Of a stretch of 64,000 bases of DNA, positions 20,818 through 27,437 are shown one piece after another. Position numbers and translations under genes: made by a program. The stretch lies in assembly GCA_964354805.1 (NCBI GenBank), contig CAYHBD010000042.1:26455-90454 (forward strand), given 5' to 3'. The notes under the pieces are model-generated. The model had not been told where the DNA came from, ran no database searches, and saw only the letters and a list, made by a program, of their open reading frames with translations. The number at the start of each line of letters is the position of its first letter. Position 1 is the first letter of the stretch. The DNA comes from an uncultured archaeon (GTDB lineage Archaea > Iainarchaeota > Iainarchaeia > Iainarchaeales > GCA-2688035).

Positions 20818-20924
20818 GCATCCTGGGCAATTTGCGAATTAATTCAATCGTTAATGATTTGCAGGTCAAGCAAAAATTTTGCTCCAGTTTCTCGGCTGCC
20901 TTCGCTGCCAAATGCCAACGCCAT

Positions 20925-21959
20925 TCAGCAAAAAATTTTGCTCCAGTTTCTCGGCTGCCTTTTTCTCCAATCGCCTTTGTGGAAAACATAGCTTGCTATC
21001 AGCGGCAGAACGCTGGTTGCTTCAGCGTAAACCATTTGCTCCTGCTTTGCTTCAACCTTGCCCCAGCTGCTTGCCTCCTTGAAGGTTGAGCTGCTGCATC
21101 CGCCGTCCCTTACGTCTGCAACGGTTATCTGCACGCTGTATTTGTGCATTGGGACATTTTTTCCAAGGACCTCGGCGCAGATGACAGTGTCCTGCGCAAA
21201 GTTTTTTGGAACTCCGCCCCCTACAATGAACAAGCCTGAAACAGGGGCCTGCATTTTTATTTTGGTCAATTCCATGAAATCCTTGACTGAATCAATTGCT
21301 ATGTGCGCTTCTTTCCTTTGCCACTGGTGTGCAACCAATCCAAGGCCTGCGCTGCTGTCGCTAAAAGCAGGGCAGAATATCGGCACATTGTGCTTATATG
21401 CTGTCTGAATCAGCGAGCCTTTTTTCTTTGCATGTTTTTGGAGATATTTGCCCATTTCTGCAATGAATTCTCTTGAACTGTAAGGTATTGGCTCAAGTGC
21501 ATCAGCAATCTTTTTAATTGCCATGTCACAGTGCTGCAATTGCTGTTCATCAATGTAAGTGTCATATATTCTGTCAATGTAAAGCCGCCTGAGCTTTCTG
21601 TCGTCAACGTGTGGGCTGCCTTTATAATGCCTGAAGCCGAGTGCTTCAAAGAAATCCATGTCAACGATTGTTGCGCCTGTTGCAACAATTGCGTCAACCA
21701 TATTATACTTTACCAAGTCAGGGTAAATCTGCATGCATCCTGCAGCTGAGGTGCTGCCTGCAATGCAAAGGATTATGGTGCAGCCTTTGTCGGCAATCAT
21801 TCTGTTGAAAATGTCTGCTGCATTCGCCACTTCCCTCGATGTGAAGGACATGTTTCGCATTGCGTTGATTATTGGCGTTGAATCAAATTTGGTTATGTCA
21901 ATGTGCTGGACAGGCTCACGCAGAAACTGCTTTTTCTCAGCCGCGTTTATTTTAGACAT
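20925..21959 (-). CDS. Deoxyhypusine synthase-like protein (bacterial/SpeY homospermidine synthase-like clade)
   Basis: AGSTSAAGC, DRIYDTYIDE, GGGVPKNFAQD, DGGCSSSTFKEASSWGK. Confidence 0.85.
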   Translation of the reverse strand: MSKINAAEKKQFLREPVQHIDITKFDSTPIINAMRNMSFTSREVANAADIFNRMIADKGCTIILCIAGSTSAAGCMQIYPDLVKYNMVDAIVATGATIVDMDFFEALGFRHYKGSPHVDDRKLRRLYIDRIYDTYIDEQQLQHCDMAIKKIADALEPIPYSSREFIAEMGKYLQKHAKKKGSLIQTAYKHNVPIFCPAFSDSSAGLGLVAHQWQRKEAHIAIDSVKDFMELTKIKMQAPVSGLFIVGGGVPKNFAQDTVICAEVLGKNVPMHKYSVQITVADVRDGGCSSSTFKEASSWGKVEAKQEQMVYAEATSVLPLIASYVFHKGDWRKRQPRNWSKIFC

Positions 21960-23150: not shown

Positions 23151-23289
23151 ACAAGGCTGGCAGTAATGAGTTCCTGTTTGAAAAAAAGTGCTTTCTAAGG
23201 CTACGGCAGTGCAATTTAATGCCCCAAAGCCATAAAGAAACTAATATATACCCCATCGGATTTAATAGTTTCAAAAAAATGGGTTTGAA

Positions 23290-23751
23290 ATGAGTAGGTT
23301 AATTGTAGGCGTTACGTGTTTCATTGCTTTGGCTGTTTTTCTTAGCGGCTGCATTGACGGCAAGCAGATTCTATTCAAGGAAATTCCGGGCGCCATTGTT
23401 CCATCACCTTGCGAGTCATTCGCCAGAGAGCATATATGTGCCTTGTTCAAGTGCATGGTTGACAGCTGCTGGTGCGATGAAGGCAGCATTCCAAGCCCGA
23501 TTTTGGAGGAGCCCAGTGCTGTTGGCAGTTTTATTGGGGCAGGCACAGCCGCCATTAAAAGCGATCAGGACGCGATAGCAGCCGTCCAGCGGTATGTGCA
23601 AAGAACTGGTTCAGAGTACAGTGATGTCAGGAGGGCAGTGAAGCTGAATAATGTTTTCTGGAACGTGTTTGCATTCAATTCGGAAAACGATGAAACGGTT
23701 TTCACTGTTGCGGCAGACGGCACAATTCTGAAAACTGTTTGCGGTGTCTGA
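23290..23751 (+). CDS. Secreted Cys-rich lipoprotein-like protein
   Basis: Signal peptide ending LSGC; clustered cysteines. Confidence 0.7.
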   Translation: MSRLIVGVTCFIALAVFLSGCIDGKQILFKEIPGAIVPSPCESFAREHICALFKCMVDSCWCDEGSIPSPILEEPSAVGSFIGAGTAAIKSDQDAIAAVQRYVQRTGSEYSDVRRAVKLNNVFWNVFAFNSENDETVFTVAADGTILKTVCGV

Positions 23752-23832
23752 ATCCAACCAGCATAAAAAACCCGGCGCAGTTCTGCAAACCAAATAGAAT
23801 AATTTAAATATTACAACGCGGTTGTAATTATT

Positions 23833-24507
23833 ATGAAATTGAAGATTTTGATTGCTCTTCTTGTTTTATGCACGCTGGTTCTCGGCGGCTGCCTGCAAAG
23901 CGAACAGGCAGGCGGTACAGGCGAGCCTGCTGGTGCTGCTGGTGAAGAGGCAAATGGCGCAAACGAGCCGGCTGGCGGTGCAGGCGAACAAACAGATGGC
24001 ACTGCCGAAACACTTGGCGTTGGCGAGTGGGCTGTGGAAATAAAAAGCGCAATAACTTTGACACCTGAACACAAAATAACAGAAACGGTATACGAGGACC
24101 TTAAGTCCGTTGATGATGTCAGGTTTGAAATTACCAGTAATTGCGGGAAAACATCAGACAAGCTTTTCAAGTTCGAGCCTGAACACAAAATAGTCATGAA
24201 AGTAGTGGATGCACAGGGGGAAAAGACAAAGTTTTATACTCATGCGTATAAGGAGGCTTCCAACAGGGAATTCGTTGACGAAATGGAAGTAAAGATAAGG
24301 CTGTATCACCAAGACGTGCCAAGCTTTGCCTGGATGGATATCGGAGAGGACGGCTTCATAAGGGAGTCATACGAAGCTTACCCTTCAACTAACTCTTTTT
24401 ACAATCCTGCAATAGCAGCAAATGCATCAGGCCTAAAGCTGAGGCTGGAAATTGTTGATACTGAAACAGGCCAGACACTCGCCTTCGGCGAGTACACTTT
24501 GGCATAG
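23833..24507 (+). CDS. Lipoprotein-like secreted protein
   Basis: LGGC signal; Gly/Glu-rich repeated linker. Confidence 0.7.
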   Translation: MKLKILIALLVLCTLVLGGCLQSEQAGGTGEPAGAAGEEANGANEPAGGAGEQTDGTAETLGVGEWAVEIKSAITLTPEHKITETVYEDLKSVDDVRFEITSNCGKTSDKLFKFEPEHKIVMKVVDAQGEKTKFYTHAYKEASNREFVDEMEVKIRLYHQDVPSFAWMDIGEDGFIRESYEAYPSTNSFYNPAIAANASGLKLRLEIVDTETGQTLAFGEYTLA

Positions 24508-24573
24508 GGCAATCCCGAGAATTGAAGCCCGCCAGCCAAAAGCATTAAGCAATAATCTCTATACATTACAGTA

Positions 24574-24590
24574 GGCGATGATGAGGTTAA
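24574..24590 (+). repeat. 5' fragment of the box C/D sRNA at 26078
   Basis: GGCGATGATGAGGTTAA identical to 26079-26095. Confidence 0.75.
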
Positions 24591-24639
24591 TCTCTTACTG
24601 GAGCAAGGCTTTAATATATGTGCAATTAATTGTTTTATT

Positions 24640-25938
24640 ATGAAAAGTGAAAAACTTATCTTATTTTCAGTTTGTATTGCAGTCTTTCTTATTTGTGGGT
24701 GCGTGAACCCGCCAAACAATGAGGTTTTGACTCCACCAGGCAAGGCCGTTTCTGTTTCTGATTTTGCAAAATGCCTTACTGAAAAAGGCGTGACGGTTTA
24801 TGGTTTCGGCACTAGCTGGTGCACGTTTTGCACTGAACAGGAAAAAATGTTTGGCAATGCATGGAAAGACCTGAATTATATTGAGTGTTCAATATCCGAA
24901 AACTTTAATGAACAGAGCGAATTGTGCAACAAAGCGGGAATAAGGGGTTATCCTACTTGGGTGTTAAAGGGCGGCGAAAAAATCGAAGGAACGTTTTCTT
25001 TTGACGTATTAAGCCAGCGAACCGGCTGCCCAGCGCCCACAATACCAAGTCAGCCTAACACAACAGACTTGAATAACGAAGTTCCTGTCGTAAATAACCA
25101 GCAATTAAAATTTGACGTAGTACAACCATTACCAGCGGGAACAGTAGGCGAGCAATACAATTATTCATTCTGCAAGCCAGACTTGACTTCAGCAAGCGAC
25201 CTTTGCGCAGGAAGCGAAATAACAAATCCTTCGGGAGGAAACCCGCCATATCATTTTGTTCTGGATTCTGGAGCGTTTGCCCCAATGGGCCTTTCTTTAA
25301 ACTTGAACGGGCTTTTGAGTGGAAAGCCCACAACCGAGGGAGAAAGCACTTTTAGTGTCTGTGCTGTTGACCAATCAGGCACGCAAACATGCAAGCAAGT
25401 CACATTAGGCATTAGTCAAGCTGTTGCAAAACCAGAAACTTGGACAGGCAAAATGACAGGCACTTATACAAGAGAATCTCTGCTTGGCGGCGGCGAGTAC
25501 GGTTATGATTTTAGCGTGAGTTTTACTGTCCCAAAAAGCATAATTGCTAACTTCAAGGACCCGGCGAATACTGACGACTGGATTGATATTAAAAAAACAA
25601 GCGGAACTATTGCTGAGACGACTACTGTCTTACAGCAGTTGGATACAACAAATAATCCCGGTGACTTAATGGTTGGAGGTTCACTTAACGAACCAATTCA
25701 AGTAGGAGTTGCAGGAAGCGTTTACCAGGCAAACGGAATATTTTTTGTTTCACCGACTGGCAAAGAGCTTATTGCGGGTTATTTGCAAAGAGATGGCGCA
25801 CCGTTTTCCGATAGTCGCTGGAGCGATATAAAGCTAACTGTTACTAATTACACTGACACAACCATTACAGGCACGTGGGGCACAGGTTTGTTTGGGGAAC
25901 TGGTAGCACACGGAACCTTCACTCTCAACAAGCAATAA
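24640..25938 (+). CDS. Secreted thioredoxin-like plus Ig-like (He_PIG) domain protein
   Basis: ICGC signal; WCTFC..GYPTW; LPAGTVGEQY..GLLSGKPT. Confidence 0.75.
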   Translation: MKSEKLILFSVCIAVFLICGCVNPPNNEVLTPPGKAVSVSDFAKCLTEKGVTVYGFGTSWCTFCTEQEKMFGNAWKDLNYIECSISENFNEQSELCNKAGIRGYPTWVLKGGEKIEGTFSFDVLSQRTGCPAPTIPSQPNTTDLNNEVPVVNNQQLKFDVVQPLPAGTVGEQYNYSFCKPDLTSASDLCAGSEITNPSGGNPPYHFVLDSGAFAPMGLSLNLNGLLSGKPTTEGESTFSVCAVDQSGTQTCKQVTLGISQAVAKPETWTGKMTGTYTRESLLGGGEYGYDFSVSFTVPKSIIANFKDPANTDDWIDIKKTSGTIAETTTVLQQLDTTNNPGDLMVGGSLNEPIQVGVAGSVYQANGIFFVSPTGKELIAGYLQRDGAPFSDSRWSDIKLTVTNYTDTTITGTWGTGLFGELVAHGTFTLNKQ

Positions 25939-26077
25939 TAGGAAAATGCAAAAACTTCCAATACAAATGATGGTTAATAAAAGGATAAAAAGCGCCAATT
26001 GAAATCATCCTCAGACTCATCAAAAGCCAGAAAAAGTAAGGCATAAGAAAATAAATTGTAACACCTATAAGCTAAAT

Positions 26078-26141
26078 TGGCGATGATGAGGTTAACACCA
26101 TCCGAGCGCAAGCTGTGAGGAGACAACTCAACACTGAGCCA
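26078..26141 (+). ncRNA. Box C/D sRNA, full copy
   Basis: TGGC/GCCA stem; C ATGATGA; 12-nt guide GGTTAACACCAT; D' CCGA; GC-GCAA-GC; C' GTGAGGA; 12-nt guide GACAACTCAACA; D CTGA. Confidence 0.8.
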
Positions 26142-26187
26142 CATTCGATTTCATTCCAAGATTTTTAGGCAGCCGTCTTTTAATCGG

Positions 26188-26811
26188 TTATTCGATTATA
26201 ATCACTTCACCGTCTCTCAGAGTTTTAAACGGAATCTTATTTTTATTGCAATATTCAACTTCTTTGTCAATGTCTGCGGACTCAGGATGGTTAGATTTAT
26301 AGTGCGGGAGAATAATGTAATCAAGGACTCCAAGGCCTTCCCAAATTGTTTTCTGAAGCTCTTGGTAAGGCCTGTCATTGGGGTCGTCAACAATTTGCAG
26401 TGCCTTGAAATCAGGAGCCAACACGCATATGCCGGCACTATATCCTGCATACACAAAATCGTTTCTTTTAAGAAGCTCTTTAAAAATTACGTCAAAACCA
26501 CTCAATTTCATTGCCTGTCGCAGAATAAATGTATTTCCTCCTCGGACGAATATGCCTCCAAATTCATTCAATTTTTTCCGCAATTCATCAGTCTTTCCAA
26601 AAAAATTCTTTAAATCAAGGTATTCTACGGTTAAGCCCAACCCTTCCAAACTTTCAATATCCAGTTTTTCCCACCTGTTTTTCTTGACCCAATCAACATT
26701 AGAATAATCACAGGCGTTTGGAATGTAAGCAATTTTTTTGTTGTTGGGCATTAGCCCGGCTAACTCGCCAGCCTTATTCCCCAGCCTAAAAGAGGACAAA
26801 TAAAACTTCAT
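26188..26811 (-). CDS. Peptidase E / S51 family (class I GATase-like)
   Basis: GGNTF, GYSAG nucleophile, ILPHY. Confidence 0.9.
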   Translation of the reverse strand: MKFYLSSFRLGNKAGELAGLMPNNKKIAYIPNACDYSNVDWVKKNRWEKLDIESLEGLGLTVEYLDLKNFFGKTDELRKKLNEFGGIFVRGGNTFILRQAMKLSGFDVIFKELLKRNDFVYAGYSAGICVLAPDFKALQIVDDPNDRPYQELQKTIWEGLGVLDYIILPHYKSNHPESADIDKEVEYCNKNKIPFKTLRDGEVIIIE

Positions 26812-26867
26812 ATAAAAACCAGTTCATCGAGGTTATTAAAACCTATAAGTATTCTTAGTTTTAATAG

Positions 26868-26918
26868 GGTTAACACCGTCTGACCGAAAGGTGTGAAGAT
26901 TTAACTCAACACTGAGCC
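26868..26918 (+). ncRNA. Box C/D sRNA paralog lacking its C box (3' fragment)
   Basis: GGTTAACACCGT-CTGA-CC GAAA GG-TGTGAAGA-TTTAACTCAACA-CTGA-GCC. Confidence 0.7.
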
Positions 26919-26954: not shown

Positions 26955-27437
26955 TCAGCGATTGCCACCCAAATCAAGCAGGCGCTGCAATTGCCAATTG
27001 CGTTCCCTGGTTACTTTGGCTGCAGCATCAGAGGGGCTGGCGGCTCTATAAATAGCTTGCAAGGCATAATTTGCAGCACCGATAGAATGAGCGGGAACAT
27101 GCGCAGTTGCCGCCGCTTGGCCTGCGGCCCTGGCAGCAGAGCAAGCGGCATTATCTTCCCCTACTTCACGAGCGGCAGCATGAGCATCAAGTGAAGTTTT
27201 GCGCACGTCCGGCATCTTGAATATTCCGGTGCGCATCCATTTTCGGAGGGCTTCAATGGCTTTTCTGGGCCTGTGGTCTTCCGGGTATTTTTCCTCAAAA
27301 TAGGGAAGAACACGCTCGACACAATCAACCGCCCAGCGTGCCAATGTTTTATGGTCGGTTTTTCCCACAAGCGCTGCAATTGCCTCGTCTTTGTGCGTAA
27401 CTGAGAATTTGGATTTTTCCTTCATATTCTCAACCAT
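26955..27437 (-). CDS. Imm-5-like putative immunity protein
   Basis: LARWAVDCVERVL, DHRPRKAIEA, AARAAGQAAATAH, ERNWQ. Confidence 0.8.
   Translation of the reverse strand: MVENMKEKSKFSVTHKDEAIAALVGKTDHKTLARWAVDCVERVLPYFEEKYPEDHRPRKAIEALRKWMRTGIFKMPDVRKTSLDAHAAAREVGEDNAACSAARAAGQAAATAHVPAHSIGAANYALQAIYRAASPSDAAAKVTRERNWQLQRLLDLGGNR

Follow-up and report, generated by a model that had tools for sequence, protein, structure and literature searches.

The DNA examined here (the window) is a 64,000-nt stretch of one contig from a 1.38-Mb archaeal metagenome-assembled genome of the Iainarchaeota that is 88.5% complete. Between positions 24574 and 26918 it carries a left fragment, a full copy, and a right fragment of a small RNA gene of the box C/D type. 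Sequence comparison confirmed what a first-pass annotation, made from the sequence alone, had claimed: all three copies are present on the + strand at the positions given, and the genes around them follow the order thioredoxin-like plus Ig-like region (Trx/Ig), peptidase S51, and Imm5-like. The 17-mer of the left copy (24574-24590) occurs twice in the window versus 0 times in 100 shuffles, and the middle and right copies are 82% identical across 51 nt (E 1.6e-8), with internal hairpins (GC-GCAA-GC and CC-GAAA-GG) as previously described. The junctions are not assembly errors, because contigs from two public runs reproduce them without differences, each junction being spanned, and a JGI contig is identical to the window over 25718-26914 and has the same junctions (these contigs may come from the same population as the assembly).

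The sequence directly before the left copy is interpreted as the right-end arm (type A; 24545-24573, + strand) of an upstream mobile unit. It includes a TATA-like TTAAG at sRNA-promoter spacing, and its last 21 nt plus box C are matched with at most three mismatches in 17 genomes from eight families. A 224-aa lipoprotein-like gene (23833-24507, + strand) stops shortly before this arm and is probably the cargo of the type-A unit, the left boundary of which is uncertain; a core with three mismatches at 23159-23172 gives a weak hint of where it lies. In the same area (23161-23766), a 153-aa gene at 23290-23751 is bypassed in the contig of one run. The left copy itself (24574-24590, + strand) has the makeup of a hybrid attachment site, comprising the sRNA 5′ end, box C, and a 7-bp overlap (24581-24587). 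The left-copy junction is identical in genome G006, where the upstream arm is different.

What we refer to as unit 1 measures 1,505 bp from core to core. Its cargo (24640-25938, + strand) encodes a 432-aa lipoprotein-like protein with thioredoxin-like and Ig-like parts, the former matching PF00085 with a score slightly below the cut-off; a protein atlas search returned a single result, an Ig-domain lead (0.76). A copy of this cargo in another genus is 92% identical and starts at the same core/left junction, with a different arm in front. The right-end arm of the unit (type D/E; 26040-26078, + strand), which is common to G011, G010, and G004, forms the upstream region of the intact sRNA gene and presumably provides its promoter activity. 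A frame annotated earlier as a truncated membrane-protein-like gene is indeed hydrophobic and open for 44 codons (25940-26071, − strand), but no protein homolog was found for it and it partly coincides with the element-end arm.

Unit 2 measures 778 bp from core to core and carries a full sRNA 3′ part and the peptidase E (S51) gene (26188-26811, − strand; 39% GC), copies of which are 81-85% identical in G004, G010, and G018, each in another context. Its right-end arm (26825-26870, + strand) contains a variant, decayed core in which the overlap has two changes and box C is destroyed. The right copy (26868-26918, + strand) is the 3′ part of an apparently displaced sRNA; it lacks box C and is probably nonfunctional, and its D box is further decayed in a sister strain. 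This fragment had been taken to begin at GGTTAA, and although the copy is there, a decayed site precedes it in register. Three relatives with a peptidase unit have the same terminal arm with a variant core, and the site reads intact in them, with the overlap unchanged in two (G018 and G004). Directly behind the right copy, the Imm5-like gene (26955-27437, − strand) is an insertion separate from units 1 and 2, because the JGI contig, which matches the window exactly up to 26914, lacks it and the contigs of the two runs skip it. Farther upstream, near the end of a deoxyhypusine synthase gene, the window has an exact 31-nt direct repeat (20872-20902 and 20931-20961, 59 nt apart).

The guide RNA and its predicted rRNA targets

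The middle copy (26079-26140, + strand; 26078-26141 including the outer T-A pair) is an ordinary archaeal box C/D sRNA, predicted to guide 2′-O-methylation of U2552 and G2581 in 23S rRNA. It has box C (26083-26089), a D′ guide (26090-26101), box D′ (26102-26105), box C′ (26114-26118), a D guide (26119-26133), box D (26134-26137), and a 4-bp terminal stem; its D′ and C′ are variants that are common in relatives. The D′ guide can form 10 bp with the A-loop of 23S rRNA, and the D guide can form 9 bp with a site located 29 nt farther downstream. The fifth base before D′ and D then corresponds to U2552 and G2581, respectively (E. coli numbering, by alignment to E. coli rrlH). The D guide had earlier been assigned to 16S rRNA at about 1083-1091; this gives way to 23S G2581, and no 16S match was as good and as rule-conforming as those in 23S.

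The guides pair over 8-11 bp with 23S rRNA in about 25 genomes, with compensatory changes. In G028, G085, and G131, position 2552 of the 23S is G instead of U and the guide has C. A neighboring A-to-U change in 23S is also matched by the guide. Where the second target is polymorphic (G/A), the D guide mostly has the corresponding C or U. Guide compensation would imply Gm2552 in the three genomes for which both guide and 23S were read. Position U2552, normally conserved in the A-loop, is G in several Iainarchaeota (L124, L129, L138, L396, and L397, the 23S sequences of G028, G060, G039, G131, and G085, respectively).

Of the 150 genomes of the order that were searched with a model of the sRNA, 118 have a match, as do 49 of the 53 high-quality ones; weak matches may be other C/D RNAs. 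Genes for Nop5 and fibrillarin are adjacent on contig C30 of this genome. At the gathering score, Rfam finds nothing in the window, and the matches below it are weak ones to C/D families (best, sR1 with 23.8 of the required 45 bits). A search with Pfam FtsJ gave no match in this genome and no full-length match at the RlmE/FtsJ level in 121 genomes of the order, the best being partial at 78 bits. A true RlmE would score far above this, and RlmE therefore seems to be missing. A sigma-70 promoter scan, with a model unsuited to archaea, stayed at background. Among the sequencing runs listed as containing this DNA, none was of RNA.

The variant site beside the peptidase E gene of relatives was considered as a second guide RNA and rejected, as it has no rRNA match. 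A hairpin sequence of about 35 nt is the same in the D′-C′ loop of the sRNAs of G050 and G033 and before the variant site of G042 (L392:6043, L406:5286, L408:6070-6110), and the sRNA of G011 has a longer insert in this loop.

Probable attachment sites and integrases across the Iainarchaeota

The 17-mer is found in 50 of 121 genomes, in up to eight copies each that are clustered and co-oriented, and in many genomes the sRNA 5′ end is repeated in tandem around small cargo units. In the loci that we fetched, the arrays run from a core through left arm, cargo, and right arm to the next core, and the last element is often a full sRNA. Part of the target gene is directly repeated at both ends and the gene is restored. 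Five genomes (G037, G035, G048, G058, and G147) have a single-copy site with unrelated upstream DNA and no stub within the 8-20 kb fetched. Such loci represent the empty state, although the exact empty allele of the window locus was not seen among them (no same-genus genome exists in which to find it).

Units are shared among genomes. One of 1,283 bp is common to two genomes at 98.9% identity in different array positions, and another of 2.2 kb is common to two families at 92% identity. Array cargo includes toxin-antitoxin pairs, Fic, AAA ATPases, Ig/propeller surface proteins, and TATA-binding protein (TBP). In L052:6097-6687 and a matching L019 unit, a second TBP gene and a PCC-domain gene sit in one cassette. 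This genome has a second unit, on the small contig C41, in which a toxin-antitoxin pair lies between well-paired ends (score 30). The layout in G042 is identical in kind to that of the window (full copy, cargo, variant site). The earlier proposal that a guide-RNA gene acts as an integration hotspot is supported by the empty single-copy sites, the tandem arrays, the shared units, and a site-linked integrase clade (see below). In relatives from the same family, the sRNA is found upstream of an RNase HII cluster, at a distance of about 10 kb from where it lies in this genome; therefore the sRNA gene itself has moved.

Similarity between stubs and the gene stops after the third guide base. When both ends of each unit are joined, the result is a dyad with its axis at the center of the 7-mer ATGAGGT, where the axis peak is sharp (0.40 versus ~0.27). 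The overlap comprises the last four bases of box C and the first three guide bases and, at 7 bp between inverted arms, is within the 6-8 bp of tyrosine-integrase elements at RNA genes. The left and right copies had been described as overlapping exactly at GGTTAA; the crossover maps instead to the 7 bp that end two bases into that hexamer. The two ends of one unit pair above shuffled partners (mean 15.2 versus 12.7 ± 0.55; 0 of 2000 shuffles), and scores of at least 20 are reached in 12 of 51 units versus 3.2 expected, a test that overstates significance because units and genomes are related.

The arms track the integrase subtype. The type-A arm at 24545-24573 pairs at 15 of 20 positions, ungapped, with the arm preceding clade-A integrases. 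For the arms of the middle and right copies, pairing is 10-13 of 20 with D/E versus 4-7 of 20 with A (for 26040-26078, 11-13 of 20 with the arms of D/E-type integrases). The pairing of the window arms with arms of integrase subtypes A and D/E ties the window sites to the integrase clade. The two ends of unit 1 fail to pair with each other (score 12), which makes it a hybrid or decayed unit.

Three larger units, of 6.1-12.6 kb, begin with a gene for a tyrosine integrase of ~430 aa with a C-terminal zinc ribbon. The relatives of this integrase, with an intact set of catalytic motifs (R, K, HxxR, and Y), form a clade with 100/99 support. Among the 13 clade members with upstream DNA, the core lies 76-244 nt upstream of the integrase match in 11 and a tRNA in none, whereas most members outside the clade sit behind tRNAs; two or three clade members are without the core. 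Eight further metagenomic members show the core-integrase layout. With a tree rooted at its midpoint only, the target switch would have run from tRNA to C/D genes. Related integrases with neither a tRNA nor a core upstream were seen at L069, L070, L072, L073, L075, L078, L083, L086, and L108. Type III restriction genes, MazF, and SduA are found on the autonomous elements, one of which also has a terminase. A 12.2-kb integrase element (L040:4112-16334) has genes for a terminase large subunit, a virion-like protein, SduA, and a proteasome-subunit-like protein, and is possibly a virus remnant or satellite of Iainarchaeota.

An integrase with the R-K-H-R-Y set beside an att site is found in relatives; neither the units of the window nor this 88.5%-complete assembly includes a member of the clade. 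This genome does encode other tyrosine recombinases, one XerA-like and the other an integrase located behind a tRNA, which share 25-29% identity with the clade; the scan found no IS110. At G000:C10:30500-32000 (L059), a tyrosine integrase follows an intron-bearing tRNA gene with long hairpins in the intron. No circular form or attP junction was seen in contigs, and there was no back-joint among the joints listed; the one joint bypassing 24590-26892 comes from a related organism and extends over only 27 nt on one side. In viral contigs, scans for the 16-nt core gave chance matches only and those for the longer arm-core gave none; integrase matches there were at most 32% identical, with no close integrase.

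Proposed integration mechanism and alternative explanations

In our view, the best explanation (with a probability of about 0.85) is integrase-driven tandem insertion at the box C/D sRNA gene, the window containing two tandem integrase-less units (1,505 and 778 bp) rather than one 2.3-kb insert. The sRNA 5′ end would double as attB for the Iainarchaeota clade of tyrosine integrases, with recombination occurring within the 7-bp overlap between imperfect inverted arms. Most incoming circles would bring a new promoter and a new sRNA 5′ end, so that the right junction regains a working gene while the left one keeps a 5′ stub. Repeated events would stack units in tandem, and a minority of circles would carry the sRNA 3′ part instead. 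For the window, we infer a start state with a type-A unit before the resident sRNA. The peptidase E unit, with its spare sRNA, would have inserted first, leaving the old copy without box C, and the Trx/Ig unit would then have entered the new copy. Neither unit has an integrase, and both would have depended on one supplied in trans. The idea put forward previously, of an insertion that supplies a replacement copy, fits the peptidase E unit but not the number of events, as there are two units.

We also suggest, tentatively and as something that may well prove wrong, that several integrase subtypes use one 7-bp overlap with their own arms, and that the gene serves as an integron-like capture platform across the order with cassettes mobilized and reordered in trans. 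If true, the platform shifts cassettes of one to three genes between Iainarchaeota families and repeatedly swaps the promoter of a ribosome-modification RNA.

A more literal integron-like scheme, in which a trans-acting integrase excises and reorders cassettes via folded single-stranded attC-like sites, seems unlikely to us. The long imperfect palindromes at the ends, the units of mostly one to three genes without an integrase, and the reversed order of three modules between G004 and G018 are all in keeping with it, although independent acquisition would also explain the differing order. However, the clade integrase scores 44 of 265 and 23 of 435 bits, far under the integron-integrase cut-offs (TIGR02249 and NF011946), branches among tRNA-targeting integrases, and travels inside 6-12 kb elements instead of beside a fixed attI. 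No IntI with its additional domain was found beside an attI, and the array sites are hybrid attL/attR rather than self-contained hairpins. The single entry of one composite 2.3-kb element (Trx/Ig, spare sRNA, and peptidase E) would account for the presence of both cargo genes in the JGI strain and for the way in which the left and right copies, when joined, rebuild arm, core, and sRNA, a state seen in a related organism. Yet relatives have either cargo, with its own end, in the absence of the other, and the arm in front of the middle copy is of the element type; we consider such an entry quite improbable. It is possible that a composite was assembled elsewhere and moved as one block.

Very little speaks for capture without a recombinase, with homologous or illegitimate recombination duplicating gene ends around foreign DNA. 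The lack of a clade integrase in this assembly would be consistent with it, but the fixed 7-bp crossover with dyad arms, and the match of arms to particular integrase subclades, would be left unexplained. An RNA-guided system of the TIGR-Tas or IS110 type acting on C/D-like repeats, which the first-pass annotation had raised, has the dual-guide C/D layout in its favor and nothing else, and is scarcely credible. The TIGR-like reading is refuted by guides that covary with 23S rRNA; moreover, the sole Nop-domain gene is the Nop5 gene beside fibrillarin, and a repeat-spacer array with variable spacers is absent. As for IS110, neither it nor Cas1 is present in this assembly, 11 genomes among 215 have IS110, and the array maps showed no conspicuous IS110-like cluster. 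A casposon was likewise rejected, with no Cas1 in this assembly and a tyrosine integrase as the linked enzyme.

Related systems and further observations at the sRNA gene

Archaeal integration targets described to date are tRNA genes, coding genes, and intergenic DNA, and the review that covers them makes no mention of sRNA or snoRNA targets (PMC8371274). Elements of the pTN3 type use the tRNA 5′ half, and the rebuilt gene is expressed from an element promoter (PMC8371274); the SNJ2 family offers another comparison with archaeal tRNA-targeting tyrosine integrases (PMC5861418). Integration as we reconstruct it for the Iainarchaeota resembles that of tRNA-targeting archaeal elements, especially pTN3-type ones, in the conserved stable-RNA gene as attB, the 7-bp overlap with dyad arms, the restored gene, the fixed int-att spacing, and the putative promoter from the element. 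Unlike in those elements, the target is a box C/D methylation-guide gene, and the integrase, which ends in a C-terminal zinc ribbon, is intact rather than interrupted by att.

Tandem genomic islands and cis-mobilizable elements occur at Dehalococcoides ssrA (PMC3146451). These are similar in that many tandem units, often without an integration module, accumulate at one RNA gene, but they differ in involving a serine recombinase, the tmRNA 3′ end, far larger islands, and bacteria. The genes ryeB and ryeE encode regulatory sRNAs of the Hfq type. Both are bacterial prophage integration sites (PMC3603311) and so are non-tRNA small RNA genes used as attB; the elements are phages, and cassettes are not stacked there on a modification guide. 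Integrons and CALINs, including archaeal ones (bioRxiv 10.1101/2022.02.06.479319), share the small gene units between recombination sites, an integrase that is often not nearby, and a cargo of toxin-antitoxin, Fic, and defense genes. In contrast, the Iainarchaeota arrays are without IntI or attC, their sites derive from a host RNA gene, and their cargo is in mixed orientation with its own promoters.

Archaeal box C/D sRNAs that target the equivalent of E. coli U2552 have been predicted in five of the species studied (PMC4644070). The Iainarchaeota sRNA is like these in architecture and A-loop target, but reaches the cut-off of no Rfam family, and a partner guide for G2581 was not found in the main text of that paper. 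A narrow literature search turned up no report of C/D sRNA genes serving as attachment sites.

If an entire integrase clade uses a methylation-guide RNA gene as its standard attB, this would add a class of target, and island finders anchored on tRNAs would miss the islands concerned. It would also identify a main route by which an uncultured DPANN group gains accessory genes (toxin-antitoxin, Fic, restriction and Shedu defense, surface proteins, and a second TBP), and integration at C/D sRNA genes would explain their duplication and movement. The system would, in addition, be a small and testable one for site-specific recombination.

There are also repeats at the other end of the gene. The last 16 nt of the sRNA recur 120-640 nt downstream of full copies (L015:1231, L016:2152, L027:8582, L034:11223, and L036:9799), suggesting a second insertion route at the sRNA 3′ end, to which the Imm5-like gene of the window may belong.
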